In this document: positions 1-51,437 of the stretch, piece by piece
How positions within the stretch are numbered: the first letter of the stretch is position 1
Layout of the letters: each line of letters begins with the position of its first letter
NCBI RefSeq assembly: GCF_032062105.1
Contig: NW_026924102.1
Coordinates: 124,001-188,000, forward strand
Length of the DNA stretch: 64,000 nucleotides
Direction: 5' to 3'
Source: Saccostrea cucullata
Lineage: Eukaryota
Made by a program: the position numbers and the translations under genes
Notes under the pieces: model-generated
The model's database searches: none
What the model was told of the DNA's origin: nothing
The model's input: the letters and a program-made list of their open reading frames with translations, nothing else

Positions 1-64
1 ACCACAACCATCAAAAATATGAAATATTTTACTGTAATAAAAAAGATTGAGTAAAGTGATTAAC

Positions 65-1472
65 CTTTCAACTAATTCCCCGATTGACACATCGTTCAGG
101 GAATCCCCCAGTTCTTCTGTTTCTCTTCTGCTGACCGTACTTAAAGCAGAGAAAAATAAATATGAATTATACAGGTCATGAATGTCTATGAAGAACAAAT
201 TTAAATACTTAAAAAATACTAACTGAGGTCTCTTCGGCGCATTAGGTGGTACACTGTAAATGAAAGACTATAACGTTAAAATTGAAAATAAGAAGATAAA
301 TGAATAAATACATGTGTATCTTACAAGGAGTATTTCATTAAATAAAATGAAGAGATGAAACTGATGGGATTTCTGTTTATCTATGTCATATATTTCACTG
401 ACCCCAATGAACTAGTATTCTCCAATTCACCATCCCCGTCTCTAAAACGTTTAGAAATAATTGCATGAACAAAATATATAAATATTATATTTAAGGAATG
501 GTAAATAAAACTATTAAAAAAAAATTTTTTAAATACTAACTTTTGTCTTTTGGGTGCATTAGGAGTCGCACTGTAAATGAAAGACTATAACTTTAAAATT
601 ATAAATAAAAAGATCAATGAATAAATAAATGTGTATTTTACAAGTAGTATTAAATTTTATCTCTTTAACTAAATTAAAAATTTTGATAATTAGTACTCAT
701 GGTTTTTTTTAATTTGAAAATGAAAAGATAAATGAATAAATACACGCGTATCGTACAAGGAGTATTAAATTTTATCTATTAATTAATTAAATAAAATGAA
801 GAGTGGAAACTGATGGAATATTTGTTTATCTATGTCATGTATTTCACTGACCCATCTTCTTCACCATCCCCGTTTCTGAAACGTTTAGAAATGAATGTGA
901 ACAAAATATGCTTAAATGTTACATTTAAGGAATGATAAATGAGGAGGGTTAATAAGACTTATTCTACTTACTCTTTACGGGGGGTCCCGATTGGCGTGCT
1001 AATTAATGTGTAGAAAAAAAATGCATAGTAATTAATGGTAAGAAATAGAAAAGAGAAAAAAAAACGAAAGAAAATGAATTCCAGTCTTTTAAAACCAATT
1101 TTCAGTAAAAGATTGAATTAGAGCCAGGCATTACTGACGGTCAATGCAGATGAGGATGATAAATTCATTAATAGATATGATTTTTAAAATTATTATGTTT
1201 CTTAAATACTTGTCAAGCGAAATAAAGTTAAAGAATGAAAATATTTTCTTTTTACCTCGTCCTCTTCCCATAAGACACTTCAAATCTACCAATTAAAAAA
1301 GAAATACAATAGCACAATCACTTACCAAAAATGACATAATTCTCAAGTTTTAAAAATGATGAAAGAGGACTTACGGACAGGGAACATTGTCTACTTTGTC
1401 AATTAGAGCGACCAAGTCCCCGATGATTTCTGTAATTACACCGCAAATACAAACAGGCGTTTTTGATGCCAT
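65..1472 (-). CDS. Uncharacterised multi-microexon gene, 3' end runs off the window. Exons: 1472-1375, 1285-1256, 998-972, 875-852, 570-541, 441-403, 253-224, 139-65
   Basis: All introns are GT..AG (84-281 nt). Internal exons are 30, 27, 24, 30, 39, 30 and 75 nt, all phase 2-2. They join into the stop-free protein MASKTPVCICGVITEIIGDLVALIDKVDNVPCPFEVSYGKRTSTPIGTPRKENGDGEEDGATPNAPKRQKDGDGELENTSSLGVPPNAPKRPHTVSRRETEELGDSLNDVSIGELVE... Confidence 0.8.
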
Positions 1473-1956
1473 GACTGGTAAGATTTCAAGGGAAAGTTTT
1501 CCTCTTTTTATTTGAAAAATGTATCATGTGATATGAGTACCAAATTTGAATAATAAAAACTAAGTCTTATGTACAGTGAATCTAGTGAAAAAGAGAAAAT
1601 GAAAAATTTGTACTGGTCATCCTCCCTGTCAATCAAAGAGGAGCCCAAAAAAGAAGGAAATCCCTGCGTGTGAAATTATACAATTCTGTCAGTCTTAATT
1701 AAAGATGACTCTAAATTAATGAACATACAATAAACAAGACTGAAAAAAAAATGCTAGTCTAGTAACGAAAACATTTTAACAGAGAAATCATCATGTTGTC
1801 ATTTTTACCATTACCATCTGTTCTGAACGGTGATTTATCGTTTTGAAAAATGTGGTCAGACATTTTTATTATGATTAGAAAGTGTTGTAAAGTAAATTTC
1901 CATCAGTGTCATCACTCACTGTGTAATTAAAGATATAAATATGGACAGGGTCATCA

Positions 1957-2289
1957 GTGCACTGGTCAGATTATAGGACATTCCGTTCCCCCAATACCTA
2001 CGGTGACGAGAAGATCAACAGTTCATCCTACTCCCACATTACAACACCCGTCGCTACGGACACTTCAACGAGGGACACGATCCTTAATACCCATGAGAGT
2101 TCAGACAAGGGTATCAGAAATGAGCTTGACTATTTGTTCATAACTATCCTTATACCCTTATTATTTATAATGTGTGTCTGTGTTTTGAAGCTAAAACGTA
2201 GGAAAAAATCTAATCTTGTAAATAATTCAATTGAGATGGAATGTGTTGATGAAGGTGAGACGATATTATACAAAGCCACAGATAAATAA
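1957..2289 (+). CDS. Small single-pass membrane protein (S/T-rich ectodomain, TM helix, basic stop-transfer, acidic tail); true 5' exon/start unresolved
   Basis: TM YLFITILIPLLFIMCVCVL followed by KLKRRKK. The ORF has no early ATG, so it is probably a terminal exon. A possible first exon is near 1793-1829. Confidence 0.6.
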   Translation: MHWSDYRTFRSPNTYGDEKINSSSYSHITTPVATDTSTRDTILNTHESSDKGIRNELDYLFITILIPLLFIMCVCVLKLKRRKKSNLVNNSIEMECVDEGETILYKATDK

Positions 2290-2481
2290 ATGCATGATCA
2301 AAATCAAATTTCCTTTTATCATATCAACTGAAAGTTAAAAAAAAAGAATGTTTAACAGAATCAAGATCCGTGATTTGTATGAATAGTTCTGTACTAATAT
2401 ATATCTTGTTTGCTACTAATATGATTTTTGAACTCATTATTCTTGTTATGATACCTGATTATCAACCAATATCCTTATTGT

Positions 2482-2799
2482 ATGCATGCATTAACACTGA
2501 TGGAGATTAAACTATTAAGTAAGTATTTACTTAATATATTTTCTGAAGTCTGAAATGCAATGAACACTATCGCGATTCATTAAGAATTCACACTCAGATT
2601 GAAATTAAAGTAATATATGTTTTTACATGTAATTAATTTTTTTCAAATTAATAATTACAGTAGACACAGCGTACGGGCTTGGGGTGACAGGAGTGTGCCT
2701 TATCATCATCATCGTGCTGTCCTGGGCAGTGAGACTACTACTTCGTAAGATGGGCATCACATGCAGACTCCCCATGAAGAAAAGTCGTGTAAAAAGGTA

Positions 2800-2867
<68 letters not shown>

Positions 2868-3075
2868 TTGCATTCATGAAATGTTACAATCTTGCACTTG
2901 CGATAACAAGTTAAAAACAAATCAGTACGAAAACATGTTTATAACATACAGGAGACCGGCAGCACGAGACATTGAGCTGAAGGACATAAGAACCGTAAGG
3001 ATAGAAACGGACGAGAGTGAGGATGAAGAGGTGCAGCTGAAAACCCGCTACGACCTGCGCGGAAGAAAAGAGTAA
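2482..3075 (+). CDS. Three-exon single-pass membrane protein of about 98 aa. Exons: 2482-2518, 2661-2796, 2952-3075. A further 3'UTR intron spans 3079-3190
   Basis: GTAAGT/GTAATT donors and CAG acceptors with matching phases (1, then 2). Product MHALTLMEIKLLIDTAYGLGVTGVCLIIIIVLSWAVRLLLRKMGITCRLPMKKSRVKRRPAARDIELKDIRTVRIETDESEDEEVQLKTRYDLRGRKE. AATAAA near 3403. Confidence 0.75.
2803..2863. repeat. (CT)n microsatellite in intron 2 of the TM gene
   Basis: Perfect dinucleotide run. Confidence 0.98.
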
Positions 3076-3213
3076 AGGGTAAGTTCATATGATGAATATC
3101 AGTAAAAGTAGTGTGTACGTAACATTTAGTATTGTATGTTTTGATATTTTTTTGTGTGTGTGTGTATATTTGTTTGTTTTTTCTTCTCAGATGACGAAAG
3201 ATCAGTACGTATC

Positions 3214-3386
3214 CAGGGAGGAACGAAGTCACTAAAGTTACAAAAGTTCCAGGAAGGAATGTGTAAATTCATCTTCATAAAAATTTTGTAAACATTGTTC
3301 AGGGAGGAACGAAGTCATTAAAGACACAAAACAAAATTCCAGAAAGGATTGTGTAAATTCATCCTCATTAAAATTTTGTAAACATT
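3214..3386. repeat. Tandem duplication of about 85 bp in the 3'UTR exon
   Basis: CAGGGAGGAACGAAGTCA...AAATTTTGTAAACATT present twice. Confidence 0.9.
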
Positions 3387-3479
3387 TAATTTCTTTTTAT
3401 TTAATAAAGGTATAATGAATGATAAATTGTTAGAACTACGGGTGATATTTATGGATTATATTCAAAACGATGGATATTA

Positions 3480-4710
3480 CGAGAAACGACAAAATTATGC
3501 CCATGTTTGGACGTTATTTGATTGTTAGGTATCATGTGTATTTTTTTTTTATAAAAATACACAAGTTATCGTAATCAACCATCTAACATCCGAACTTTGG
3601 TATAAAAAAATATGAATGGTCCGCTAATACTCTGCTTACAGACAACATGCATGAATAATTAACCAAAGAGGTTTATAATGATACCAATTCTTTAAAAAAA
3701 ATCACGTTTACAAGCATGTTGAGAGGATGACAAAAGCATACCCATGTTTAGATGTTCAGGTATTCATTGTATAATGACAGAGATATGAACGGTTTTCAAT
3801 TATTGTAATCTAATTGAAAAGGCTTTGCTAAATCAAAGTGAAATGAACCAAATTCACAAGACTGATATGCATTTTAGATTTATAAAAAAAATGCGATAAA
3901 TAATTTATTTTCTGTCATACTTTAAAAACAAGGATTTTTTCAAAAAAAGAGAGTTGTTTGAAATTCAATTAAAAAAAATTCTTACAATAGAAAATTCTTT
4001 TAAGGAAGGATTTTTATTTCATAACATCTTAAAAATTCTACCACGATTAAAAAAAAAATACCTAATCAATAATTTATTAAGTACAAAATATAGTCATACA
4101 TTGAATATCCAAACTTTGATAAGTAAAGTAAAAAGACGGCAACAGTTTACGTGCGAAATAACAAGGAGGATTTAAAATTAATCTATTTACATTTAGAAAA
4201 AGCGTAAAACACGGAGTGAGGATGAAAAAAATAATCCCCCCTGTTTTGAACATTATGTCATTGTTAAAAATACGCCCAGGTTTAGAAGTTATTTGATTGA
4301 TAGGTATCGTGTGTATTTTTTTTAAATTAAATACACAAGTTGTTTTAACCAATCATTTAATACCCAAACTTTGGTATGTATCGTAAAAGGACAGCAACAG
4401 TGTACGCACGAATCAATTACAAGGAGGATTTAAAATTAAATCTCTTTATTTATTTTAGAAAAAGTGTAAACACACGGGTTGAGGATGACAAAATAATTTC
4501 TTCTGTCTGAACATCATGCCATTATTAAAAATGTATATATACACATAAAAAAACTAATTACGAAACATTAAAGTATAAATGGTATTTATTATGTGTGAAA
4601 AAAAAATCTGATGTAAAATACAGAATTCATTAACTTTTCCCATCGAAATTTTCCATGGTTTACTACCTGTATCGTACATGAACGAATTACAATGGGGTAT
4701 TAAAAGTACA
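3480..4710. repeat. Degenerate tandem array, period about 250 bp, 4-5 units
   Basis: Recurring blocks GAGGATGACAAAA (3723, 4218, 4481), CCAAACTTTGGTAT (3590, 4109, 4364) and ACAAGGAGGATTTAAAAT (4161, 4419, 4690). Confidence 0.7.
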
Positions 4711-5467
4711 AAAGGTAATCATTGTATATAAAAGAATCTGCAACATTCTACAAACAATGTCATTATTTTCCCTACGGAAAATTTTCCAGAGTCCCGAAAT
4801 GTTTTTTACGCTTGAGCAGTATCACCCAACAGGAATTTGAGAATTGTTGAAATATCCAAAATAAAATAACTGTATATTACTTTTATTGTATATTATGTTT
4901 TAAGTCCTCTGAGGAGACTGACGTGCGTTACTTAAGGAAAAAAAACATCATGTTTCAGTGTGGTTATTGTGAATTAATGTTTAATGATTATGATAGCATG
5001 GCCGATCACGAAAAGGAACACGAAAGGAATATTAACAATACTGCAAGGTAAGAATGACCATTTGTTTACCTTCTTATGCACAATTCAGAAAGATATCGGA
5101 TAAAGAGAGATAACTCCGCTAACTTCAAATATCTGAGGTGAACTCGGGCATTACCTTGTTAACGCTCCTTGTAAAGTCACAACACAGAGACTTAACGTAA
5201 ATGTGAATAACCAAAATCATAGTATCAAGTAATGAAGTTGTGTTATTTCTATCCATCGATGATGGCTAATATATCATTGCAAATATATAGATGTAAATAA
5301 TTGTTTTTTTTCTTCCAATTTTTTTCTCTCGATGATAAATCTGACATTTAAAGAGAAAAAGAAACAGGGATCTAATTAATAAGGTGAAAAAATCATCAAT
5401 GAGTTTACTGTGTCATGTGTTTTGTTGTCAAACAAGTACTTTAAGATATGTATTTGACCCCCCGATT

Positions 5468-6375
5468 TAAATCAAAACGCACGTATGGTGCTCCATGCGA
5501 GATAATTGTCAATAAAACAGAGAGCGACTTCATGTATGGTGGACCGCTTGTGATAAAAATGATTAAAGTTATGGATCAATTGTATGGCGTCACATAATAG
5601 ATAAAATTCACCCCTATCAAAGTATACCATGTATGGTATTCCGTTTGTGATAAAATTCGATGAAAAATTGAAAAAAAGGTAAAATATATGGTAACCTTTT
5701 TGAGTTAAAAAAAAAATCTTTAAAAAGTTTTTTTTATTTACAACAGTTATTCAACCACCCTAAATCTAAATCAAAACACACGTATGGTGTTCCATGCGAG
5801 ATAATTGTCAATAAATCAGAGAGCGACATCATGTATGGTGGACTGCTTGTGATAAAAATGGTTAAAGTTATGGATCAATTGTATGGCGTCACATAATAGA
5901 TAAAATTCACCCCTATCAAAGTATACCATGTATGGTATCCCGTTTGTGATAAAAGTCGATGAAAAATTGAAAAAAGGTAAAATATATGGTAACCCTTTTG
6001 AGTTAAAAAAATCTTTAAAAAGTTTTTTTATTTACAACAGTTATTCAACCCCCCTCAATCTAAATCAAAACACATGTATGGTGTTCCATGTGAGAAAAAT
6101 GTCATTAAAATATAGAGAGCGACTTCATGTATGGAAAATTTACTCAAATCAAAGTAACCCATATACCGTAACCCGTTTTGTGATAAAAGTTAAAAAAAAT
6201 AAAATATACGGTAACTCATTTGAGATGAAATTGAATTTTAAAAAGTTTTTTTTAAATGTTTGATAGTTTAGCAAAATTTAAAAAAAAAAAAAATGAAAAA
6301 TGAGAAAGTTATTTTATAGGATGATTCGTTTTGAGATAAAGAAAAAAATTAAGAGTGGGAATGTATGGTAACAGA
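5468..6375. repeat. Higher-order repeat upstream of pPolB: units of about 299 bp built from monomers of about 50 bp with GTATGG-N12-GATAA
   Basis: GTATGG/ATATGG at 5483, 5534, 5582, 5631, 5686, 5782, 5833, 5881, 5930, 5984, 6076, 6129, 6363; most are followed 12 nt later by GATAA or GTTAA. Confidence 0.85.
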
Positions 6376-6427
6376 TATCAATGAATGAGCAATGTCTTAA
6401 TGTCTGGTGTTTATTTTAAAATATACA

Positions 6428-9400
6428 ATGAATGATTACAGTTCGGGCGTTTGTGAACAAGAACTGTTTCGAGACATCCAAAACATGGACTGGACACCTG
6501 TTACGGGAGACGACCTATTATACCAGGCGTCCACGTCCAGCGGTGCTCATGCAGAGAGCATGGACTTTAAGGACATTGCCGATTCCTCCTTCCACGGCGA
6601 GGAATCCCTGTTGATGGAAGAAGATGGACTCTTTTCGGAAATCACGGATACCTCTTTTCACGGTGAAGATTCTCTCCTTTGCGACATACCAGTGGATCCG
6701 CTGAGCGATTCATTAGCCGGTCAGTACGGTGCTGGACGAAAAGACGATTTCGATATTCGAATCATACGTGAAAAGAAATTGAAAAAGATGGGAGCCGTGG
6801 ACTTGCAGTACGAGTTGACGTTCCACGACGACCTCTTTCGGGAAAAAAAGAAGATGATCGAAGTCAAAAACGTCTTGAAAGACGCCTTCGAAGAGATGCT
6901 CGATCGAGTCAAGAAGGACCTTCGTCGCGGAGATCTCGTCAGGGCAGCCATCCATAATGATCATTTGGACTTGCCCGTGTTCGTCCCCTGTCGACCCATG
7001 GAGGAGATGGACGCAGAGACCATGCTAGAAAGCCTGATGATCGTCCTTAACAGTCACCAGGACCTGCCTTTCGATTCCTCTTGTCGAATCGATATCGGGG
7101 CCATCAAATATCCACGCGGTGGTACGGGAGTAAAGATGTCTTCCGTCGCTAAATCGATTGCCGAGAAGAGAGCCATTATAAAGATACGCAATACCGATAA
7201 CAAGTGTCTCGTCCGCGCTACTCTCGTCTCTTTGGCCCACAGTTGTCAAATTCACATCACTGAGTTTAACAACGTCAAGGCGCGTCATCCGACCCTCACG
7301 ACCGGGGAAATTCTCATTTTTTACCACCAGTGTCCGCTCTGGTATTGCAGGGATCTGCGAAAAAACCACAAAGGAGCCCAAGACAGCCTGACAAATCAGA
7401 TCTGTGAAACGATGAATATCGTCGATGACGGTCCGTTGTCCTACTTGGCCATCCCTCCTCTAGAAGATTTTCTCAACGTGAACCTCTACATCATCAGTGC
7501 GAAGATGGGGAACGCATTCTCTTACATCAGTGCCCATCACGACGAAGAACGAAAGAAACTATTCCTGCTGCACGACGACACGGAGGGGGCCGAACACTTT
7601 TATCCCATCACGACGCTGGCAGGTTTCTTTTGTCGGTCACGGTTCTGCAGTACGTGTTTAAAACCATACGAAAAACCATACGGACATAAATGCAAACACC
7701 ATTGCAATGTCTGCTTTTCCGATCATTGTCCCGTACTACAAAAGAGAGCTTGTCCAGACTGTCATCAGACCTGTCGCTCTGGGGCTTGTTTCATTCGACA
7801 TAAGAATCCCATGGAAGGAGGGACCACACCTTGCGATCTCCGATACAGATGTCCGACCTGCAAGAAGACTTTCTTACGACACGAGTTAAAACCCGAAGAT
7901 CACCGATGCGGTCATTACATCTGCAAGTCCTGCAGGCAATACGTAGATCCCGAACATCTGTGCTACGCCAGGAGACACCCTTCCAAGGAAAACGAAACCA
8001 GTCGACGATTCATTTTTGCCGACATCGAGGCCTCACAAAAGGACGAAATCGTCCAGTGTGAGTGGGGATACGCACCTCGACGCCTCAACGACTGTACCGA
8101 ATGTCGAACAGAGCAAGACCCGTGCCCCTCCTGTCGACTCTGTCAACACTGTCTCAAATCGCACTGCGGAAAATTTAAACATACCGTGGTCTTGGCAGTG
8201 TGTCAGACCGCCTGTGAAAATTGCGAGAACGACGACGTCACATTCGACAGTACGTGCGCTTCTTGTGGAGACCGATGCTCGACCTGTGACAAGAAGGACA
8301 AGAAAACCAAACAGTACCTTTCGCTTCCCTGTCCTGGTCGATGCGGACAGCGAGAGCGCGTCTTCCAGACCTTGTACGATCTCGGGATATGGATCTTTCG
8401 CGAACATCACAAAGGCTTTACCGTCCTGTTTCATAACCTCTCGTACGATGGCCAGTTTCTTCTGCAGTACTTACTGTCGCAGTCCATTCGTCCTTCCTTT
8501 ATCATTTACAGGGGAAGTAAAATTCAAATGTTCAACATCACCGGCCTTCAAATCCGAGTCATCGATTCGTTTAACTTCCTACCGATGGCCTTATCCAAAC
8601 TCCCCAAAGCCTTCCAGCTGGAATCGCTGGCCAAGGGGTACTTTCCTCACTTTTTTACATGCCAGGCCAACCGGAATTATGTGGGACCTTACCCACCTGC
8701 CGAGACTTATGGTCCCAATGCCATGTCTGTGGATGGTAGAAAAGAGTTCTTCAAATGGTACGACGCTAAAGTCACCAGTGGAGACCTCTTTGATTTTCAA
8801 CAAGAAATCCTCAAGTACTGCCGAAGCGACGTTGACATCCTCCGACGTGCCTGTCTCAAGTTCAAGAACCTCCTGCAGGAAGCAACCGGTAAAGAGGGAG
8901 GCCAAACCGTCGATGCGTTCGATTCCTGTACCATCGCGTCTCTCTGCATGGACGTATTTAAATCCAAGTTTTTAATGGAAGACTGGAGATGCCTGGTCCA
9001 AGAGGACGATGAGGAACGTTGGCTGGAAGTCAGGAAGTTTGACGGAGAGGCGATCGTGAATGACGAGGGTCGTTGGATTCCTTGGAATACTCTGAAGCAA
9101 CGGAACGTCGTCATCGTGAAAGAAGAGTTTGTCAAGTCCCCCATTGCTCGTCCTCCACCCAAGGGATATCCGTCCCGCATCCAGTACAGCCGCAAGTCCA
9201 TCTGCTGGTTAGAGTTACTGAGACATCGCGCTCAAACTTCGGGACGCATTTTGGACATTCAGCATGCACTCACGGGACGTGGAGAATACCATCTGCCCGG
9301 TACCCGATATTCCCTAGACGGATACGTTTCCCCCAGTGCCGAACACCCCCACGGCGTGGCTTACGAGTTCCACGGCTGTCTGTACCACGGCTGTCCCGTC

Positions 9401-10972
9401 TGTTACAAAGATCGAGACGCCCTACTGATCCCGAATTCGGAGCAGACGGCTTCGGAATTGTTTTCACTGACGCAGCACAAGGAACTTCAACTCCGTCAAC
9501 GGGGACTCAAAGTGGTCACCCTCTGGGAACACGAGTTTGACGCCATGTTAAAGACGGACGAGGAGGCCAAAGCGTTCGTCGACCGTTTAGAAGTGGTGGA
9601 CCGTCTCGATCCTCGGGACAGTCTGATGGGTGGGCGTACCAACGGATGCGTGCTCTACAAGCGAGCCACCAAGGACACGAAAATCAAATACGTGGACTTT
9701 ACCTCCCTGTACCCCTTTGTCAACAAGACGTGCCGTTACCCCGTCGGACACCCAGAGATCGTCACCCGGGATTTCGCCGACCTTTCGACCTATTTCGGAT
9801 TAGTCAAAGTCAAAGTCCTACCGCCCCGCGGTCTCTTTCATCCGGTCTTGGGTTACCGTACGGGAGGAAAATTGACCTTTCCTCTCTGTCGAACCTGCGT
9901 CGAACGGCAGCAACAGACCCCCTGTGTCTGCAACGAGGACCAAAGGGCTTTCACGGGAACGTATTGCACGCCAGAACTCTCAAAAGCCATCGAAAAAGGG
10001 TACGCGGTCTTGAAAATCTACGAGGTGTACCACTGGACGGAAACGACTCAGTACGACACGGCCACGAAGACCGGAGGCCTCTTTTCCTCCTACATCAACA
10101 TGTTTCTGAAAATAAAACAAGAGGCCAGTGGGCGACCGGCGTGGGTCAAGACCGAGTCGGATCTCGAAAGTTACATCAGGATGTACGAGGCCAAGGAAGG
10201 CATTCGCCTAGACCCCGACAAAATCCAAGTCAATGCGGGTCTAAGGAGTTTAGCCAAACTGTTATTGAATAGTTTTTGGGGGAAATTTGGTCAGCGCACG
10301 AATCTGACCAAGACCCAATTCCTTCACGACAGTCAGGCCCACTTCCTCTTCGGTCAAATGACCGATCCCACCGTACAGATTGTCGACTTTAACATCGTGG
10401 ATGACGAAAACCTCATGCTGTCCACCAAACGCGTTTCGGAAGAGATGTGTGCTCCGGGTCACACCAACGTGTTCCTGGCCTCTTTTACCACCTGCTGGGC
10501 CCGGCTCAAACTGTACGACTTACTAGATCAATTACAGACTCGGGTCCTTTATTGGGATACGGATTCCGTCATCTACGTGTCCAAGGCAGGGGAGTGGGAA
10601 CCTCCCACCGGAGACTACCTCGGAGAGCTCACCGACGAACTGGACGAAGGAGATTGGATCACGGAATTTGTCTGTAACGGTCCAAAAAACTACGCGTACC
10701 GGACGCATCAGGGAAAGCAGGTGTGCAAAGTGAAAGGCTTTTCTCTCAACTACGCCAACTCACAGATTCTCAACCTGGAAAGTATGAGAGACGCTATGTT
10801 TAATCGCGACGATCCGACGATGGGCATGTATCACACCACCAACGCCAAAAAGATCTGCCGGGAAAAGATTCATTCTGAGCTCTACAGTCAAGAAGAACTC
10901 AAACAATATTCGGCTGTCTACACTAAGAGAGTCGTGCAGAGTGACCTGACCACCCTTCCTTACGGATATTAA
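6428..10972 (+). CDS. Protein-primed family B DNA polymerase (pPolB) with N-terminal OTU-like domain, Zn-fingers, 3'-5' exonuclease and inserted VSR-like nuclease
   Basis: Motifs: DNKCLVRA...HFYPI (OTU-like); FADIE, HNLSYDG, YCRSDV (Exo I-III); LDGY...YEFHGCLYHGC (VSR-like); VDFTSLYP, KLLLNSFWGKFGQ, YWDTDS (Pol A-C). First ATG at 6428. Confidence 0.97.
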   Translation: MNDYSSGVCEQELFRDIQNMDWTPVTGDDLLYQASTSSGAHAESMDFKDIADSSFHGEESLLMEEDGLFSEITDTSFHGEDSLLCDIPVDPLSDSLAGQYGAGRKDDFDIRIIREKKLKKMGAVDLQYELTFHDDLFREKKKMIEVKNVLKDAFEEMLDRVKKDLRRGDLVRAAIHNDHLDLPVFVPCRPMEEMDAETMLESLMIVLNSHQDLPFDSSCRIDIGAIKYPRGGTGVKMSSVAKSIAEKRAIIKIRNTDNKCLVRATLVSLAHSCQIHITEFNNVKARHPTLTTGEILIFYHQCPLWYCRDLRKNHKGAQDSLTNQICETMNIVDDGPLSYLAIPPLEDFLNVNLYIISAKMGNAFSYISAHHDEERKKLFLLHDDTEGAEHFYPITTLAGFFCRSRFCSTCLKPYEKPYGHKCKHHCNVCFSDHCPVLQKRACPDCHQTCRSGACFIRHKNPMEGGTTPCDLRYRCPTCKKTFLRHELKPEDHRCGHYICKSCRQYVDPEHLCYARRHPSKENETSRRFIFADIEASQKDEIVQCEWGYAPRRLNDCTECRTEQDPCPSCRLCQHCLKSHCGKFKHTVVLAVCQTACENCENDDVTFDSTCASCGDRCSTCDKKDKKTKQYLSLPCPGRCGQRERVFQTLYDLGIWIFREHHKGFTVLFHNLSYDGQFLLQYLLSQSIRPSFIIYRGSKIQMFNITGLQIRVIDSFNFLPMALSKLPKAFQLESLAKGYFPHFFTCQANRNYVGPYPPAETYGPNAMSVDGRKEFFKWYDAKVTSGDLFDFQQEILKYCRSDVDILRRACLKFKNLLQEATGKEGGQTVDAFDSCTIASLCMDVFKSKFLMEDWRCLVQEDDEERWLEVRKFDGEAIVNDEGRWIPWNTLKQRNVVIVKEEFVKSPIARPPPKGYPSRIQYSRKSICWLELLRHRAQTSGRILDIQHALTGRGEYHLPGTRYSLDGYVSPSAEHPHGVAYEFHGCLYHGCPVCYKDRDALLIPNSEQTASELFSLTQHKELQLRQRGLKVVTLWEHEFDAMLKTDEEAKAFVDRLEVVDRLDPRDSLMGGRTNGCVLYKRATKDTKIKYVDFTSLYPFVNKTCRYPVGHPEIVTRDFADLSTYFGLVKVKVLPPRGLFHPVLGYRTGGKLTFPLCRTCVERQQQTPCVCNEDQRAFTGTYCTPELSKAIEKGYAVLKIYEVYHWTETTQYDTATKTGGLFSSYINMFLKIKQEASGRPAWVKTESDLESYIRMYEAKEGIRLDPDKIQVNAGLRSLAKLLLNSFWGKFGQRTNLTKTQFLHDSQAHFLFGQMTDPTVQIVDFNIVDDENLMLSTKRVSEEMCAPGHTNVFLASFTTCWARLKLYDLLDQLQTRVLYWDTDSVIYVSKAGEWEPPTGDYLGELTDELDEGDWITEFVCNGPKNYAYRTHQGKQVCKVKGFSLNYANSQILNLESMRDAMFNRDDPTMGMYHTTNAKKICREKIHSELYSQEELKQYSAVYTKRVVQSDLTTLPYGY

Positions 10973-11004
10973 CAACAAGACATTTTTTTTGTATGAAATC
11001 ATTT

Positions 11005-11064
11005 TTTATTGGCTCATGGTACATGTTTTTGTAATTCTTGTACAGAAATATAAATGTCAATAAA
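11005..11064. terminator. Convergent polyadenylation signals for pPolB (+) and the minus-strand structural block
   Basis: AATAAA at 11059-11064 on + and at 11010-11005 on -. Confidence 0.6.
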
Positions 11065-11196
11065 AGTTCCAAAAATCTCGAGTCTTTCTTCTTCTTTGTG
11101 AGAGTTGTGCATATGCTCAGAAGGTACTTCCGGTCGTATTCACTCGGACGGTCTGTTGCCTGAAAGATGATCACGTATGTTTTCGTATAAAATGTT

Positions 11197-11445
11197 TCAA
11201 AACTTGATCCAAGTCTTGTTCTTCTTTGGGAGAGTCGTGCGCATGCCCGGTGGGGACTTCCTCTTCACGGATCCGTCGTAAATCAGTCCCGAACCCCTCT
11301 GGCGATCCGTCACCGAGGGTTCGATCTGAGGGTCGGAAGGAGTCTCGGTGTTCGTTTCTTGGTCTCGTACCTCTTGACGATCATTCTGACTTTGTTTCAT
11401 CCGATCGAAGGTCGTCTTTTTCACGAGAACGTATTCCTCTGCCAT
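11197..11445 (-). CDS. Small Polinton ORF (82 aa), positionally PZ-like; contains a QRGSG motif
   Basis: ATG in good context, overlaps the upstream ORF, N-terminus MAEEYVLVKK and C-terminus WIKF resemble PZ-type termini as recalled. Confidence 0.6.
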   Translation of the reverse strand: MAEEYVLVKKTTFDRMKQSQNDRQEVRDQETNTETPSDPQIEPSVTDRQRGSGLIYDGSVKRKSPPGMRTTLPKKNKTWIKF

Positions 11446-11740
11446 CTTTGAAATGAGGTTTCAGAATCAGGGGTATGGCCTCTGCGTGTTTCCTCAATAA
11501 TTTCTTGATGGCGGTGTTGTCCACTGCTCGGTCACTGAGAGACTGAAGTAATGTTTTATGAACCTTGAGTTTTGTCTTGTAATAACCGGACACGGGGGGA
11601 TGTCCCGAGTACAGATTGAGAGCGATTTCTCGAAAAGCATTCAACTGCTCGTCCGACGCCAGGTTGACCAGTTCTTTCCTCTGTACGGGATCCGCTTCGT
11701 ACAGGAAACGGAGAAAAGTTGCGTGACGTCTAGGTCTCAT
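11381..11740 (-). CDS. Conserved Polinton PW-like (putative core) protein, 119 aa
   Basis: Pattern L..L...QRKELV..A...QL.AF.E.ALN.Y.G..P......L..HK..L..L. Start MRPRR at 11740 is preceded by a TATA-like element and Inr. Confidence 0.75.
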   Translation of the reverse strand: MRPRRHATFLRFLYEADPVQRKELVNLASDEQLNAFREIALNLYSGHPPVSGYYKTKLKVHKTLLQSLSDRAVDNTAIKKLLRKHAEAIPLILKPHFKDGRGIRSREKDDLRSDETKSE

Positions 11741-11778
11741 GACGAACAATGACGTCTCGAATGGGTCGGCGGTCGTAT

Positions 11779-12417
11779 TTATTGGGGCAGGTACACGACC
11801 GTTTCCCCTTCTTCCGGTAAGACGTTCGTGCGCAGGCGTCGATCTTCGGGACAGTGATTGGTCAGATCCACCAGAATGTATCCGTAAGGACGGCGGACGG
11901 CCTTGGCGTAGGCGTCCATCCAAAATTTAGAACGACCCGTAAACACCTGACTTCCGAAGGTGATGATCTGGCGATTGTCTCTCACGTTCTTGAATAGAAC
12001 CACGTGTTGACAGTTCAACAGGATGCTCTTGGCGTAGACTCCGGGCGGGTAGAGGTTCTGAGACAAGAGAAATGCCGTCACGTTGCCGTGAGACACCATG
12101 GTCTGAAACAGGTGCAGGGCATCGGGGCTCTTGGTCGCCAGGTGAATCATGTCGTCCAAGACCACTACCGTGTGTGGCGAGTCCAGACACCAATCTCGGA
12201 TCTCTTCTCGGGTAGGCAATCCTCGGTAGGTGGTGAAATCGGGGAGAGTCGCTTGCATGTCGTCCACCACGGGTTGGTCTTCCAGATAACAGTACACGAT
12301 CTTACTAGGAGAGACTTCGAACGTGTCGGGACTTTTCAACAGGTTCCACACCCAGTGCGTCTTGCCGCACATGGTTCCCCCCACGACGGCAAACGAGGTC
12401 GGAGTCTTAAATTTCAT
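11779..12417 (-). CDS. A32/FtsK-like genome packaging ATPase
   Basis: Walker A GGTMCGKT, Walker B VVVLDD, LSQNLY and PYGYILVD motifs. Confidence 0.95.
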   Translation of the reverse strand: MKFKTPTSFAVVGGTMCGKTHWVWNLLKSPDTFEVSPSKIVYCYLEDQPVVDDMQATLPDFTTYRGLPTREEIRDWCLDSPHTVVVLDDMIHLATKSPDALHLFQTMVSHGNVTAFLLSQNLYPPGVYAKSILLNCQHVVLFKNVRDNRQIITFGSQVFTGRSKFWMDAYAKAVRRPYGYILVDLTNHCPEDRRLRTNVLPEEGETVVYLPQ

Positions 12418-12550
12418 CGTGACGTTCTCTTGGTAAAGGCTGTCAGAGACTAACGTCTCTCTAGAGAAAACACCTCGTTAAATAATCACAACACCTTTTT
12501 TTTGCGTGCACTTTTTTTATTAGACACGAAAATCAATGACATGAACCACA

Positions 12551-12610
12551 TTTTCCCGGGCCGCCGCCGCGCGCGCGAACCCGAGGGATCCGGAAACTGG
12601 TTTCCGGAAA
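12551..12610. promoter_or_regulatory. GC-rich upstream element of the ATPase gene with palindrome TCCGGAAAC-TG-GTTTCCGGA
   Basis: GC island in an AT-rich spacer; inverted repeat at 12589-12608 with ETS-like CCGGAA cores; E2F-like TTCGCGC on the minus strand. Confidence 0.5.
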
Positions 12611-12736
12611 TCTTTGATGATGGACAATGCGAATACCAATCCATAAAATAAAAGATACAATGTGCATTCTTAGGATCATACATACATACAGAATAAACAT
12701 TTTTTTTTATATTTAAGAGTCTTCAAGCATATAATG

Positions 12737-13183
12737 TCAAAGAAGGCGATCTCCCTTTAAAATAACGTCACGTACGAGGGACTCTGACGTCGTACGAATC
12801 ACATCGGCCATGGATAGTCCTTTCACTCGACAATACAGGTAAAATAAGGCATGAAGTCCGCAACTGGTGGCAGCATCCGGCTGTACTTGTACGTTGTTGT
12901 AGAGGCAGAACAAGGCGTTGCGATCGATAAAGTCTCTCAGACGACCGTCGTACTCTCCCGGCAATCTTCCGAAACTGTCGAAAAATTCGCATTGGTCGGC
13001 ACTGGCGAACCAGTAAGCGACCCAGTGCGTCCCCTTCTTGTCGATGGGATCCGTGTTGCAGACGAAGGCCGAGGGAAACTGTCGAACTCGCCCGGGTAGC
13101 GTATCGGAAGCAAACACCCCCCGAAAATGAAGTTTCAACCCCGGCAACGTCTCTACTCGTTGAAGTAACTGTAACGTGTCCAT
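12737..13183 (-). CDS. Adenain-like (C5) cysteine maturation protease
   Basis: GVFASD, NTD, GTHWVA (His), EFFDSFG (Asp), VQ...SCG (Gln/Cys). Confidence 0.95.
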   Translation of the reverse strand: MDTLQLLQRVETLPGLKLHFRGVFASDTLPGRVRQFPSAFVCNTDPIDKKGTHWVAYWFASADQCEFFDSFGRLPGEYDGRLRDFIDRNALFCLYNNVQVQPDAATSCGLHALFYLYCRVKGLSMADVIRTTSESLVRDVILKGDRLL

Positions 13184-13185
13184 GT

Positions 13186-14499
13186 TTACATCTGTCGGAT
13201 CTCTCGAGCTTGGTCGACGAGGAGCAGTCCTGGATATTCGCAGAAGGCCAGTGCGCTCACGGTCTCCGTGGTGGGCGAGGCAAATCGAGCGTATACTCCG
13301 ACGTTTGCCTGATGTACCAGGTTTATATACCCCTCACCCAGGTCGTTGGGGTCGAGGTCAAAGGCGTAAATGGCGTAGCCTTTAGAAAACTGGTCGCGGT
13401 CGATGATCAGGCCGTCGTCCTTGTACCATTTTTCGGAAGCTTGATACAGGTTGCAGAGCGCCGTGACGTAATTTCGATCGTCGCCAAAGTCCATCTTCAT
13501 GGGACGGACGGGGGTGGGTTCTCCGTTGACGGTCACGACGATTTCGGACAGATTCAGGTGTTGAAAGTTGTAAGGATTGCCTTCGTAGCTTCCGTTCACG
13601 GCCGACTGTTTCACAAAGACCACGTACATCTTGGAAGGTCTTCTTCCGTTCCACACGTCGTCCCAGTAGACTTCACTGGTCTTGTCCGAGATGGTCATCA
13701 TCTTGACGTCGGTCTTGAGATAATTGTAACGGGCCGGCGATTTGGTGATGGCGTTGGCATGGTTCAACAGGACGGCACTGTCTAATCGGATCTTGCACGC
13801 CTTGAAGACGGCATCGAGGATGGTGACTTTGTAACTGGGCGAAGCCTCCGCGCTCATCAGCACAAACTCGTTCCTCGAACGAAAGAGTCTCAGCTGTAAG
13901 TCGACCCCGTTGATCAGGTACTTGTCCAGGTAGAAACAGTCGACGTACAGGGGACCTTCCAGATCGAAAGTTCTGGACATTTGCGTGAACACGTACCGTC
14001 CTCGGAGTCCCTGGTTGCGTCCTGTGGCGGCATCTGCGTCATCCAAGACTTCCTTGTCGGGGTAATACAGCTGAGACTGTAGTTGCGAGTTGCTGGCGGC
14101 GGGTGAGTTGGATAAGAGGACTTTGAGGTAGGCTTTCCAAGGATAATTGTTGGCGTTCTGCGAGACGCATTTTCCGTTCATGTAGACGTCGATCTGCGAA
14201 AACAAAGACTGCAACGGCAAGTTGACGATACCCGTCTTTTCGGAGGCCGCCAGTGCCGTGCCGTCCGCTTTAGTGATCTTGGCTTTCAAGTAGAGTCGGC
14301 TCCTTCTCAAGTCGATGTATTCGTTTCCCCCTCCCGGAATGGCAAATTCGAGAGGAGCGGTGTCTCCGTCAAAGGAGGAGACGGGTCGAATCTCCGAAAA
14401 ATAAATCTTTTGAACAGCCACCTGATTGGGAGGATCGCTAAAGAGAGCCAGTTCGGAGGGTTCTGCCACGGACGTGTTGATCTCGCTCAAAAATGCCAT
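13186..14499 (-). CDS. Double jelly-roll major capsid protein (PY/hexon-like)
   Basis: 437 aa; SELALF.DPP.Q, PLEF.IPG...[28 protein letters not shown] motifs typical of Polinton MCP. Confidence 0.93.
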
Positions 14500-14501
14500 G
14501 A

Positions 14502-14957
14502 TTAAAAGATGGTTTTCTTTGGAAGACGGGATTTTCTCTGCGTGGTTTTTGTGGTTTTGGGTTTCCTTTTCTTTAGGCTTCTGGCTCGTTTACGGACTTT
14601 CGTCTTCTGGCTCCGGACACGTCCTTTCCCTTTGGAGGTCGATGTGCGACTGACAGATTTCTTCTTCTTTTTTCTTTTTATAGTTCTCTTCAGAGGTATG
14701 TGAGGCTCGTCGTTACGCATGGTTTCTTTCAGATCGGACAGGGCTCGCTCTTGCTCGGCGGCTACGGGTGTCACCAGCTGTACGTTCTGTTGGGGAATGC
14801 GAGATTTCAAGGGAAGCATGTAAGCTCTTCTGCGGTTTAGGATCCCACCTCCTCTCTGGCTGTTGCGTCGTAGGGTAGGAATGAAATTTTCGCCATCTTC
14901 CGTGTGGCGAAATTGTTCCCATAAGGCCGGATTCGAAATGTAAGTGGGTCCAGACAT
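14502..14957 (-). CDS. Basic core/DNA-condensing protein (adenovirus pVII/pX-like by analogy)
   Basis: QRGGG motif, [11 protein letters not shown] motif, K/R-rich C-terminal half, located between penton and MCP. Confidence 0.75.
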
Positions 14958-14963
14958 GTTGGA

Positions 14964-15371
14964 TCAGAGACGCCGAAACACGAGTGTCAACGTCGACTCT
15001 CCGACCAAGAATGAAACGTCGCCGTCGTTTTTGTCTCTTATATACACGTGAACGTCCCGCAGGTCATTGATGCGTAACGGTATGCGATAGGGTTGCAGAA
15101 AGATGACGTTGCGGTCGCTTTCCAGCACGATGCGCCTCAGGAGGGGTTTCTGATGTTCCCCGACGATGCTATCGTCACAGACGGAACAGTAGACGAAGAT
15201 TTCCTTGTCGGACGTCGGTTTGACGTTCGAGTTCCAAAATTCGGTCAGTTCCACCGTCCAATCCCCCGTCAAGGGTAAAGGACGGGGTAACCGCACTCTA
15301 AAGTCGTCAGGTCGATTGTTGTGGTGGACGGAGGGACTGTCCGTAGACTTGAGAACCATTCGCATCGACAT
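14964..15371 (-). CDS. Minor capsid protein/penton (PX), short single jelly-roll
   Basis: L.S.DS...H.NN.P.DF.V.LP.PL.L.G.W.V.L.E, FVYCSVC..SIVG....PLLR, I.I.D..G..V.F..G. Confidence 0.88.
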   Translation of the reverse strand: MSMRMVLKSTDSPSVHHNNRPDDFRVRLPRPLPLTGDWTVELTEFWNSNVKPTSDKEIFVYCSVCDDSIVGEHQKPLLRRIVLESDRNVIFLQPYRIPLRINDLRDVHVYIRDKNDGDVSFLVGESTLTLVFRRL

Positions 15372-15401
15372 CTTCTCTAGTACTGATGAATTGAGTCGGC
15401 A

Positions 15402-16526
15402 TCACGTCTCTTTTATGTCGGACTGAGGAATCCAGCTGTCGAATTTTTTGGGCCAGCCCAGCCATCTGACCAGAACCTCTTCTTTCCCGCGAACTTTGCG
15501 TTTCCGCAAGATCTTGTCTATTCGCCAGACGGTCTCATCGTCTTTCGACACTTTCTGAAGTTCGCTGGCGTAAAACGTTCCTCGAATTGGGTCGTCCATC
15601 ATGTCCTTCAATTTGTAGATGGGTATGTCTTGAGACACGAAACGATCACTCACGATGAAGATTTCTTCCGTGTACGTCTGGTCGTAATCGCGTTGAAACG
15701 CCCGTTTCAGATGCGTGATTCGAACTTGATCACCCTTTTTAAATCTGAAGGGTTTGCGTTTTTTCAGAGATTTCTTCCCTCGGGGTATGCGTGCGTCTTT
15801 CTGTCGACGTGCTAAATAAGCATCTAATCGCACTTCTTCTTCGTTCTCTTGGGTCACGGAAGACGGCGTCCGTCCGTTCAGCGAGCGATTGGGCGTATCG
15901 TTGATGGAATGCACCACGTCTTGAAGAATGTTTAGGTACTTGTATTTCTGAAGGTGGGTGAAGTAACGATACAGTCTCTTCTTTAAAGTCTGTATGTATC
16001 GCTCCGCAAAATTGGCTTTGGTCTCGTTCAGGGCGTAAAATATCTTGATGTTCTGCTCTCTCAGGTATTTTTGAAGGTATCGATTGTAAAATTCCGAGCC
16101 CTTGTCGGTGCGGATGGCTCTGGGTCGTCTAGGGCCACTCAGTACGTCTTTGAACGCATCGATGACGGACTTGGATTTCCGGTCTTTCAAGGGTCGAACC
16201 CACAGAAAACGAGAAAACACGTCCACGATCACCAGCAGAAATTTGATGCCGTCGTTGTACTCGGACAAGTTCTGAACATCGGCCAGATCGGCTTCCCATT
16301 GATAGTCGATCCCTTGAACCACGACTCGTCTCCGCTTGAAACCACGTCGCCTCAGTTTCTTTTGCAACGAGTAAGCATCTTGGTTTTGTAAGAATTTTTT
16401 GATTTTTCTCAAACCAATATTATATTTGCCTTCTCGTTTCACCACATCATATAACTTGGAAGGTCCGGCAAACGATCCGGCATGCCGAGGATCGTACCAG
16501 ATTTTTTTCAGGTACTCTTCCATCAT
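15402..16526 (-). CDS. Retroviral-like DDE integrase (rve) with C-terminal chromodomain
   Basis: EADLAD, RTDKGSEF, AERYI triad; WRIDKIL...LVRWLGWPKKFDSWIP chromodomain. The ORF track start at 16553 is TTG; the first ATG is 16526. Confidence 0.96.
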   Translation of the reverse strand: MMEEYLKKIWYDPRHAGSFAGPSKLYDVVKREGKYNIGLRKIKKFLQNQDAYSLQKKLRRRGFKRRRVVVQGIDYQWEADLADVQNLSEYNDGIKFLLVIVDVFSRFLWVRPLKDRKSKSVIDAFKDVLSGPRRPRAIRTDKGSEFYNRYLQKYLREQNIKIFYALNETKANFAERYIQTLKKRLYRYFTHLQKYKYLNILQDVVHSINDTPNRSLNGRTPSSVTQENEEEVRLDAYLARRQKDARIPRGKKSLKKRKPFRFKKGDQVRITHLKRAFQRDYDQTYTEEIFIVSDRFVSQDIPIYKLKDMMDDPIRGTFYASELQKVSKDDETVWRIDKILRKRKVRGKEEVLVRWLGWPKKFDSWIPQSDIKET

Positions 16527-16840
16527 CCGATCACTAGCACTGTTCGAATGCAAATGACTTGAACCCGTTTCACACCTCCATTTTTATATTTATAAAAAGA
16601 CCTCTCCTAGTCATAAAAAAATAAACAACACACATTTCAACAAACCAAATTTTATTCATCAGATCAAATACAAACAATAGTCTCCTCTCACTACTTCGGT
16701 CGACCTTGTCCATACGGATCGGAGCACCTGACGTGTCCTAGATCGGTCGGTTCGGATTCTCGAAGGAGACGTGGGTGAATGGTCTCATGATTTTTTTTTG
16801 GTCTTTGAAAAAAAAGCCACAGTTCATAGTTTTCGTTCAC

Positions 16841-17308
16841 TCATCGTACTTTTCCATCGGTCACCATGTTAGCGAAGACACAATTCTCGGACCAGCGGAG
16901 ATGTTCTCTGTAGGCATCGTCGAAGGGTTCCCAATTCTTCAGAGTCCAGCCACAGGAGAAGCAAGTGACTTTGTCTCCGATCTCGGTGTAAATGAACCCA
17001 GATCGTGCTAGATCCGTCTTGTTGGGACCTTTGAGAAACTTGGGCCATTCTTTAAAGCTGGCATAGCGTTCGGCAAAGTTGACGTATTCCGGGTACTTCC
17101 AAGATTTTCGTACGACAGGCGGAGGAATGTTCTCGACTGGCAGTCGTACAAACTCGTTTGATGTCCCCCGTACCCCCGACGACTTGTAAGGGCTGACCAG
17201 AACGAATCGGGTGTCGGGGTCTCTCTTTCGAGCAGTGGTTTGGGTCAAGAGGTTGGGTGCACTGTCCGTCTCCACGACATTAGGCATGCAATCCAACGTC
17301 GAAGTCAT
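16841..17308 (-). CDS. Single-BIR inhibitor-of-apoptosis-like protein (no RING)
   Basis: R.ASF..WP, LARSGF.Y...GDKVTCFSC...L..W...DD...EH..W...C. Confidence 0.93.
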
Positions 17309-17390
17309 GTTATCGTGACGATGTGTTCACTAGTAATGAAAGCCGAGAATGAGAGACGAGACATTAAAGGGTCTTGATCACGTGCTTGAC

Positions 17391-17422
17391 GGGAAAAACC
17401 TGTGACGTCATAGGTTTTTCCC
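17391..17422. promoter_or_regulatory. 32-bp palindrome: Rel/Dorsal-like kB site, CRE, kB site
   Basis: GGGAAAAACC-TG-TGACGTCA-TA-GGTTTTTCCC, one mismatch from perfect dyad, in the divergent promoter between BIR and the 17728 ORF. Confidence 0.7.
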
Positions 17423-17727
17423 CGATGTGATGGACCATGAAGGTACTCGGGAGAATTTCATTGTGACACAAAGGGGGGAAAGAACAATGGGAGTATTATC
17501 TCTATTGTTTGAGCAAGGGGGTAACAACAATGACGGATCATCACGGATGAGTCCCTTCGTGACCCTTAGACGACCTTTCCCACGATTCAATGGGAGTCAA
17601 ACACAATGACTCTATTCTTGGAACAATAAAGGGGACGCTGTGACTGCGCATAACGTCCTAGGTGGCAATGTTAAAAAGCAGAGGTTTCCATCAGAAAGAT
17701 CATACCTCCTCTAGCATACGGACCAGA

Positions 17728-18183
17728 ATGATTTCCAACAAGAAATATCAACTCGAAATGATAGATGATTCAGGCTTTCATCTATTCATGAAAAAGGGTG
17801 CAGCTGTCAAACAACTGATTGACCACCATATTGCCAACGACATGAGTACAGAATCCTGTGATTTCTGTAAAAAACAGCACGTTCTCAGAAGTAAGCTCGT
17901 CCATGAGAAACACTGTCTTGTCCGATTAGCTTTGGAAGCGCAATCGGACGTTACAAAAATGACCACATTCTGTTTGCGAGCACAGGATATCCAAGACGAA
18001 TCGCACGGAAAGAACCTGGTGTTTTTCTGGGATATCATGATGGTCACTATGGCCGACCGTATTCCCTTCGAGGACATGAGAGCTGCTTATTACGAATCCC
18101 TTTTTGAAAGTTACGACCGCGGAGAAATGGAATTCCTGTGGCCAGACGGAGTCTGGCGTAAAGAAGACCCATGTTACACTTAA
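17728..18183 (+). CDS. Hypothetical protein with CxxC...H...C putative Zn-binding motif
   Basis: Clean ORF with CDFCKKQH...HEKHC; TATA-like TTAAAAAG upstream; AATAAA at 18249. Confidence 0.65.
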   Translation: MISNKKYQLEMIDDSGFHLFMKKGAAVKQLIDHHIANDMSTESCDFCKKQHVLRSKLVHEKHCLVRLALEAQSDVTKMTTFCLRAQDIQDESHGKNLVFFWDIMMVTMADRIPFEDMRAAYYESLFESYDRGEMEFLWPDGVWRKEDPCYT

Positions 18184-18343
18184 CTTTTAATCAATGAAAA
18201 AGAACAGTTTTTCATGAAACCATGTTTTTATTCTGGTTACATGTCAACAATAAATTTTTTAACCTCTTATTTTTCGTTGTCTTTTTTTTAAACATTAGAT
18301 TCAACACAACATGGATTAAAAAAAAAAACAAAACTTTTGCTCA

Positions 18344-18856
18344 TCAAGTACGAGGTACGACGATAATGACATTTTTACCGGATCTCTTTACAAAGTTTTT
18401 GATCAGTCCGAAATAAACACTCCAATCTCCCCCGGCAAGTCCACATCCTATCTTGAATGGAAAGGCTATGGTTTGAAAATGAGTATCTGTCAGTTCTTGC
18501 AGACACTGTTGAAACCATACAACTCTGTTTTCTTTCGTGTCCACAAATGGCGGGATCTTTCGTTTACAGTTGTTTTGACAACGACCGAAATCCCATTGCG
18601 ACAGGAAACAGACGATTGCAGGACACTCTGGTGTCGTAAAAATGCGTACAGTACCTGGCCTCCCCCTCGTTTCCAAAGTGGCCAAGTTACGCTTTGCCAC
18701 GGGTTGTCTTTGTTGGTAAATATCGGCCCAAGGATACTTGAGGGCGATTTGACGTGAAAGGCCATGGGATGTCACCGTTAAACAATTTACCTGGTGACAG
18801 ATGGCGTCCACCTCGCTGATCGTTAAGAGATTTCCGTAGACTTGTCGTATACTCAT
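18344..18856 (-). CDS. Macro domain protein (Poa1p/TARG1-like ADP-ribose processing)
   Basis: GNLL....DAICHQVNC....HGLS.QI..KYP and IAFP.KIGCGLAGGDW motifs. Confidence 0.9.
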   Translation of the reverse strand: MSIRQVYGNLLTISEVDAICHQVNCLTVTSHGLSRQIALKYPWADIYQQRQPVAKRNLATLETRGRPGTVRIFTTPECPAIVCFLSQWDFGRCQNNCKRKIPPFVDTKENRVVWFQQCLQELTDTHFQTIAFPFKIGCGLAGGDWSVYFGLIKNFVKRSGKNVIIVVPRT

Positions 18857-19224
18857 TGTCTCTATGGGAGATCAGACGACTGTGAACGATTCGATTGGAA
18901 ACAGACCTTTTAATCAAAAACTTAACTCTCTTGTTTACCACGTGACCAAATAACAACACACTGATTTGAAATACAATAGACTTTTATTTACGGAATAATG
19001 ACAAGATTTAAACATATACGAGAATACGGTGACAAGATTCAAACATATATAAAAAAAATACGGTATCATGACAAGATTCATATTGGAAAAATGTCAAACT
19101 CGTTCATAGTCTTTCTTCTCACAGCGAGGTTCATTGTTTCACCGAAAATCAAAGGTTCTCATGTCCACGTCTTTCGTTTTCCCACCGTTTTTTGACTTGT
19201 TCACCATTTTCCCGTCTTCCGATT

Positions 19225-19734: not shown

Positions 19735-19859
19735 GTTGTCGCTATCACGTTTGTTTCTCAAATGACGAAAAAGTACAACCCATCTTCTATATAAACGTCT
19801 CCCCAATGACACGTCATAGAAAACCCAAGACATCCCACGTGGTCTGTTCAGGTCACTAC

Positions 19860-25439: not shown

Positions 25440-25560
25440 CACAGGGGCCAGTAACATGCTAAAAATTTATGTAATGACTATTTATATACAAAAAAGACTT
25501 TTTTTTGTATATAAATAGTCATTACATAAATTCAAATTTAGCATGTTACTGGCCCCTGTG
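25440..25560. mobile_element. 121-bp foldback MITE, CA..TG ends, 8-bp TSD CCCTCATG (P- or hAT-type)
   Basis: Near-perfect palindrome flanked by CCCTCATG at 25432-25439 and 25561-25568. Confidence 0.85.

Positions 25561-33357: not shown

Positions 33358-33391
<34 letters not shown>

Positions 33392-49159: not shown

Positions 49160-51437
<2,278 letters not shown>

Follow-up and report, generated by a model that had tools for sequence, protein, structure and literature searches.

A bipartite repeat array, most likely inside a predicted intron of the DNA polymerase gene of an oyster Maverick element

The DNA analysed here (the window) is a stretch of 64,000 nucleotides from the oyster Saccostrea cucullata (contig NW_026924102.1, positions 124,001 to 188,000), in which we identify the host of the repeat array described below as a Maverick/Polinton element at 6428-20214 with unbroken core frames (Table 1). 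The Pfam matches of the ATPase and of the major capsid protein fall under the curated cut-offs; position and the 211 homologues fit these assignments, and the best named relatives of the capsid protein are models from Saccostrea echinata with 83-91% identity. The accessory genes include those for a protein with a single BIR domain (IAP-like) and for a protein with two PC4 domains; the 170-aa ORF at 18344-18856 on the minus strand looks macro-domain-like by eye, with no Pfam match, and a 171-aa ORF of the same region has a sub-threshold match only.

Table 1. Coordinates in the window of the element, of the predicted exon and intron, and of the repeat array
Feature	Coordinates	Strand	Remarks
Predicted C2H2 zinc-finger exon of pPolB	4950-5047	+	32 codons and 2 nt, phase-2 donor
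Predicted spliceosomal intron	5048-6441	+	1394 nt, GC 0.30; joins zinc-finger exon to polymerase exon, holds the array
299-bp unit, copy 1	5465-5763	+	Monomer types A-E; box 1 at 5483, 5534, 5582, 5631 (exact sites) and 5686
Unit copy 2 (294 bp)	5764-6057	+	Box 1 at 5782, 5833, 5881, 5930 (exact sites) and 5984
Unit copy 3, older or decayed	6058-6260	+	Partly broken boxes at 6076, 6129, 6163, 6206
Fourth D-E monomer pair, strongly diverged	6298-6395	+	Box 1 at 6316, 6363; just 5' of the acceptor
Protein-primed DNA polymerase B (pPolB)	6428-10972	+	Open frame of 1514 codons; spliced exon would begin at 6442; DNA_pol_B_2 (PF03175), E=8e-49; 41-69% identity to relatives in the N-terminal part
Maverick core module	11197-16526	-	Two small ORFs, ATPase, protease, capsids, basic protein, integrase
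A32-like ATPase	11779-12417	-	PF04665, E=0.009, under curated cut-off
Adenain protease	12737-13183	-	PF00770, E=3e-6, over cut-off
Major capsid	13186-14499	-	Double jelly-roll PF21738, E=0.0015, under curated cut-off
Probable minor capsid	14964-15371	-	Label given from position
rve-chromo integrase	15402-16526	-	PF00665, E=1e-10, over cut-off
Right accessory region	16841-19833		BIR (IAP-type) protein, two ORFs without assignment, PC4-domain protein
Right terminal region	19834-20214		~100-bp tandem duplication; ends in ACTACT at 20209-20214

Short CATTGT/ACAAT motifs, which we take to be SOX/HMG-like, are clustered in the right terminal region (9 distinct sites) and in the divergent intergenic region 17309-17667 (4 sites); counted as overlapping patterns they amount to 14 against 0.4 expected and to 8 against 0.7 expected, respectively, and the ~100-bp tandem duplication accounts for some of this surplus. 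The ACTACT motif at the right end is of the type described for vertebrate Mavericks in the accessible text of PMC8097293. No inverted partner of this terminus was found in 1-30000, and therefore the left end lies outside the window or has been lost. The stretch 1-4900 forms an AT-rich arm with likely spliced genes, among them membrane-protein exons at ~1939-2289 and 2661-2797 and a tail exon at 2950-3077. The minus strand of the arm carries duplicated micro-exon/intron units at 200-940, and 3490-4530 holds degenerate duplications. An Atlas search with the membrane-protein exon gave no usable match, and the CpG observed/expected ratio in 2.5-kb bins was 0.72-0.94 in this arm versus 0.24-1.04 in the flank; the arm is either the left accessory arm of the element or host DNA. 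Elsewhere in the window there are host tandem arrays with units of 148, 166-168 and 156 bp (21437-23772, 33275-34363, 37349-38460, 49331-51175, and 61885-63342), which presumably resemble Cg170, and a perfect nested inverted repeat with arms of 25 and 32 nt, MITE-like, at 25439-25561.

When the element is compared to animal Maverick/Polinton elements of the adintovirus type, as they are described in the available portions of PMC8097293 and PMC8502044, the two converging modules, the accessory genes, and the (AGT)2//(ACT)2-type end are common to both. In contrast, the core ORFs of intact vertebrate Mavericks are intronless in these sources, whereas pPolB here likely has a zinc-finger exon and a 1.4-kb intron. 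The boxed repeat array apparently contained in this intron and the location of the ATPase on the capsid strand also set the element apart from the Mavericks and Polintons covered there.

The array had been placed in front of pPolB by the first-pass annotation, but it most likely lies inside a predicted intron of the gene, starting 421 bp past the donor and ending 67 bp short of the acceptor. The zinc-finger exon has an acceptor-like site ahead of it, near 4904, matches zf-C2H2_4 of Pfam (E=1.7e-4, under the curated cut-off), and shares 10 of 14 residues with the start of the RefSeq model P0156 and 9 of 24 with P0183. Its GT donor at 5048 matches 9 of the 11 U1 positions, and the acceptor at 6441, which falls at codon 5 of the pPolB frame in phase 2, is the sole in-frame YAG out of the five found beyond 6250. 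Furthermore, the Crassostrea virginica RefSeq models P0156, P0183, P0184, and P0187 start with a homologous exon whose junction with the polymerase falls on the equivalent residue, the unspliced ORFs P0121 and P0124 show a Tyr-Ser acceptor signature at the junction which implies the same position and phase, a further lineage (P0237 and P0245) has a Phe-rich tract followed by Arg-Ser at the junction column, and acceptor-like F/Y/C-(R/S) signatures align in additional lineages. The C. virginica RefSeq pPolB models with this start (XP_022311286.1, XP_022308336.2, XP_078310778.1, and XP_078312868.1) are annotated as uncharacterized proteins; compared with this pPolB by protein, they have a C2H2-type first exon with a junction equivalent in position and phase. 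Of the nine named NCBI models retrieved, four begin with the C2H2 exon and the other five start further inside the gene.

The predicted splice rests on computed gene models, because the spliced start was seen in none of the non-NCBI proteins among 185 relatives; the zinc-finger start, present in RefSeq models, was missed by ORF callers. The predicted splicing of a zinc-finger exon to pPolB has a position and phase that are apparently common to several bivalve Maverick lineages (41-71% identity). An internal promoter serving the ATG at 6428 was initially suggested by a Met aligned in three relatives, and this idea was later weakened because the cluster member P0202 has Leu at the aligned position and because Met is also what bacterial gene callers write for alternative starts. 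Lying in the predicted intron, the array would belong to the element, so that its earlier assignment to the element and not to a flanking host satellite holds as long as the predicted splice does. No account of a zinc-finger exon or intron in bivalve Maverick pPolB was found in the open literature searched; the string 'splic' is absent from the accessible text of PMC8502044, and 'zinc' and 'intron' from that of bioRxiv 10.1101/2024.03.18.585575.

The array is genuine but smaller than first described, and it rests on five independent monomer types. The first description counted some 14 monomers, each with its boxes separated by exactly 12 nt. There are eight exact GTATGG-N12-GATAA sites, all of them on the plus strand and within 5483-5952, where 0.02 were expected and none of 100 shuffles reached eight; these represent only four independent monomers (types A-D), since the 299-bp unit is duplicated. 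With up to two mismatches and a spacer of 12 the count rises to 12 sites (0.28 expected, a maximum of 2 in 200 shuffles), whereas a looser search with three mismatches and spacers of 11-13 is unspecific (19 sites versus 6.5). By homology ~16 sites can be placed, those of copy 3 and of the distal pair (6316 and 6363) having broken boxes or a 13-nt spacer. The fifth monomer type, E, carries two mismatches and lacks GATAA. The spacer measures 12 nt in all five types while the linkers vary in length, and the period described as near 50 bp, although mostly 48-55, is irregular and ranges from 34 to 157 (successive distances between first boxes are 51, 48, 49, 55, 96, 51, 48, 49, 54, 92, 53, 34, 43, and 157). 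The higher-order unit was well described, as TRF reports a tandem repeat at 5468-6153 with a period of 299 bp, 2.3 copies and 90% match, and the four spacers quoted before are those of copy 1.

The copies differ widely in divergence, with 12 differences in 294 aligned bases between copies 1 and 2 and 28 in 91 between the distal D-E pair and the corresponding monomers D2E2 of copy 2. Copy 3 carries a 63-bp deletion that starts at the end of a box 1 and resumes inside a box 2 (n=1). Other degenerate local duplications occupy 200-4550 as well, and for this reason duplication alone is local background. A structured RNA (z -0.90; no Rfam match in 1-21000) and a hairpin in each monomer (a 7-bp arm in type D only) were considered as candidates and rejected.

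Among the five monomer types the boxes are indeed conserved and the N12 variable, with identities of 0.93 for box 1 and 0.92 for box 2 versus 0.41-0.43 for the spacer, 0.34-0.40 for the flanks, and 0.30 for the background; the spacer is thus not wholly free, given its 41-43% identity against a background of 30%. We simulated neutral evolution of five diverging 48-nt sequences in nine settings of 4000 runs each, and because the boxes had been picked after the fact the best box pair anywhere was taken in every run. The observed contrast between boxes and spacer was reached in 1-13 of the 4000 runs per setting. The simulated sequences follow a star phylogeny and undergo no gene conversion, and the statistics are carried by five non-independent monomer types; therefore plain drift is rejected, but not every non-selective process. 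The same contrast does not hold between recent copies: changes from copy 1 to copy 2 affect 0 of 53 box positions versus 12 of 241 elsewhere (p=0.087), those from copy 2 to copy 3 affect 7 of 41 versus 23 of 157 (p=0.74), and a pooled test of box protection in recent copies gives p=0.43. The figures for the old D-E pair are 6 of 22 in boxes versus 22 of 69 elsewhere. The contrast noted earlier thus holds against the neutral model among the old monomer types, but recent substitutions do not significantly avoid the boxes, and the box constraint, if any, is old or limited to some copies.

No related array was found in the collections searched. The double motif gave 0 loci in viral_contigs and 17 in metagenome_contigs, the latter being coding matches, unrelated microsatellites or further repeats, none of which has a BLAST match to the window, while a single extended motif gave 84 singletons in viral_contigs, none with a second site; none of the 104 loci from the motif scans matches the intron. 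Four scans of viral_contigs gave no relatives of the capsid or pPolB, and genome_contigs held three related loci, none of which extends to the pPolB 5' region. Maverick capsid genes with ~50% identity occur at two loci in Solemya gill-symbiont assemblies, L018 (NZ_JRAA01000006.1), which also has integrase and protease matches, and L019; these probably stem from DNA of the clam host contaminating the bacterial records. A description of the array was not found in the open literature searched.

The reading that we favour, with a probability of roughly 0.4, is that the array is an intronic enhancer, a cluster of GATA-type binding sites expanded by tandem duplication. A host GATA-type factor would bind WGATAA and a partner protein would bind TATGG 12 bases away. 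Old selection on these DNA-protein contacts may have preserved the boxes while the linkers drifted; repeated local tandem duplication would tune the number of sites, leaving a near-identical copy, a decayed copy and an old dimer, and surplus monomer copies would be free to decay. A fixed spacer of free sequence would be the trace expected from two proteins binding together. The earlier interpretation of GATAA as a GATA-factor core agrees with the data, as all eight exact sites fit WGATAA (W is A or T in each of the four exact types), and the array contains 10 WGATAA sites against 2.2 expected, although these come from only four to five independent monomers. Introns near the 5' end of a gene are a usual location for enhancers. 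The predicted intron that holds the array is at a likely conserved position and adjoins the 5' end of pPolB, and the second short-motif cluster in the same element, that of nine CATTGT/ACAAT sites at the right end, also favours an enhancer. Moreover, the core genes of the element are unbroken, and selection on the intron has therefore probably lasted until recent times. Against the enhancer stand the boxes not significantly protected in recent copies, the type E monomer without GATAA, and a monomer spacing (48-55) that is out of helical phase. To our knowledge, box 1 fits no canonical factor: the consensuses of YY1, Runx, Cdx, and SRF are each mismatched, and YY1, which had been proposed before, agrees only in a 4-nt core of the consensus that we assume for it. 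A cis-regulatory role of the array is nevertheless plausible.

The main alternative, which we regard as possible though somewhat doubtful, is that the array is a functionless intronic minisatellite whose boxes persist as the sites at which unequal exchange, gene conversion or slippage builds and reshuffles it. The lack of significant protection in recent copies is consistent with it, as are the many degenerate duplications upstream and the deletion of copy 3, the one large deletion seen, both ends of which lie at box edges (1 of 1). It also has a precedent in the higher-order satellites of the nematode Meloidogyne, where, according to the accessible part of PMC3694981, diverged monomers share conserved boxes proposed as exchange points. 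In the array, too, monomers that have diverged strongly are grouped in a higher-order unit and retain short conserved boxes in common; however, the Meloidogyne satellites form large chromosomal arrays with boxes of ~17 nt (PMC3694981, same part), whereas here less than 1 kb of a viral-type intron carries boxes of 5-6 nt. Such boxes are very short for homology-driven exchange, which moreover does not obviously hold the spacer at 12 nt while its sequence drifts, and neutral substitution alone was rejected by the simulation. Control at the RNA level would also assign a function to the boxes, with GTATGG serving as a decoy for U1 (a weak 5' splice site) ahead of a variant polyadenylation signal, GATAAA, and adjusting the splicing of pPolB or its premature termination. 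Every site is on the sense strand within the intron, between 4 and 7 of the 11 U1 positions agree in the box 1 contexts, and GATAAA is present in three of the five monomer types, but a single orientation is predicted by tandem origin alone, box 1 is far weaker than the real donor (9/11) and has G at -1 in no site, and the RNA showed no structure, with 3 of 20 shuffles as stable, so we consider this explanation quite unlikely.

A host satellite, or the core of a non-autonomous mobile element, could have been inserted into the intron of this particular copy, given that oyster genomes scatter short arrays within Helitron/Helentron-type elements (accessible text of PMC8268682), that the window holds several 148-168-bp arrays of this kind, and that the array is AT-rich like host DNA. 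We give this origin little credence: a second copy was not found in the 64 kb, no element ends surround the array, the graded divergence of the copies suggests long growth in place, and among the matches listed from the Crassostrea gigas satellitome supplement, in its accessible portion (PMC8268682), there is at least one unrelated GTATGGT and no ACCATAC. The bipartite, fixed-spacer, repeated layout would also suit a signal for packaging or replication origin recognised by a protein that the element encodes, in the manner of the adenovirus A repeats or the baculovirus hrs with which the array had been compared. Protein-primed replication starts at termini, and adenovirus A repeats (consensus TTTG-N8-CG) lie within a few hundred bp of the genome end. 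The array has a different sequence and no visible terminus nearby, the right one being 13,839 bp away and the 5,467 bp upstream containing no left one (unless deleted in this copy), and it lacks a long palindrome, all of which makes such a signal very improbable. Seven related A repeats are bound by IVa2 and L4-22K in adenovirus, and the likeness to them is restricted to a repeated bipartite motif with a variable spacer (PMC4346872, available part). The baculovirus hrs, as described in the accessible text of PMC13513840, have units of ~70 bp with a central 30-bp palindrome and occupy several loci; the array resembles them in consisting of short tandem units in the genome of a DNA virus or virus-like element, with an enhancer strength that could rise with the number of units, but it is non-palindromic (the longest exact arms measure 3-7 nt in the eight monomers examined), intronic, and present at a single locus in the 64-kb window, so neither viral comparison survives as originally drawn. 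The least likely of the explanations is a relic of repetitive protein-coding sequence, the boxes reading Tyr-Gly ... Ile-Lys in one frame. Three successive monomers share that frame, and a number of the spacings are divisible by 3; however, in the boxes the third codon position never varies whereas the encoded amino acid does, the copy differences are 8 non-synonymous versus 1 synonymous, stops and a frame break are common to both copies, and a search of 1.84 billion proteins gave 0 matches (best Atlas score 0.76). The codon pattern and the absence of a homologue largely refute it.

The enhancer reading can be extended, although in this wider form we hold it to be unlikely, to a model in which bivalve Mavericks would control their polymerase through a copy-number-tunable GATA plus TATGG enhancer with a strict 12-bp spacer in a conserved pPolB intron; this would couple replication of the element to GATA-expressing cells, for instance haemocytes, while the SOX-like terminal cluster would drive the opposite module. 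Should the array prove to be nothing more than a minisatellite prone to recombination, it is an ordinary curiosity. The gene model itself is corrected, as a spliced zinc-finger exon likely forms the start of pPolB in this lineage. Little is understood of what activates animal Mavericks and of the cells in which this happens, and the array is a direct candidate for an element of that control. If the wider model is true, it would define, for the first time in an animal Maverick, a concrete cis-regulatory grammar and would provide, in addition, a strong native enhancer for mollusc cells.
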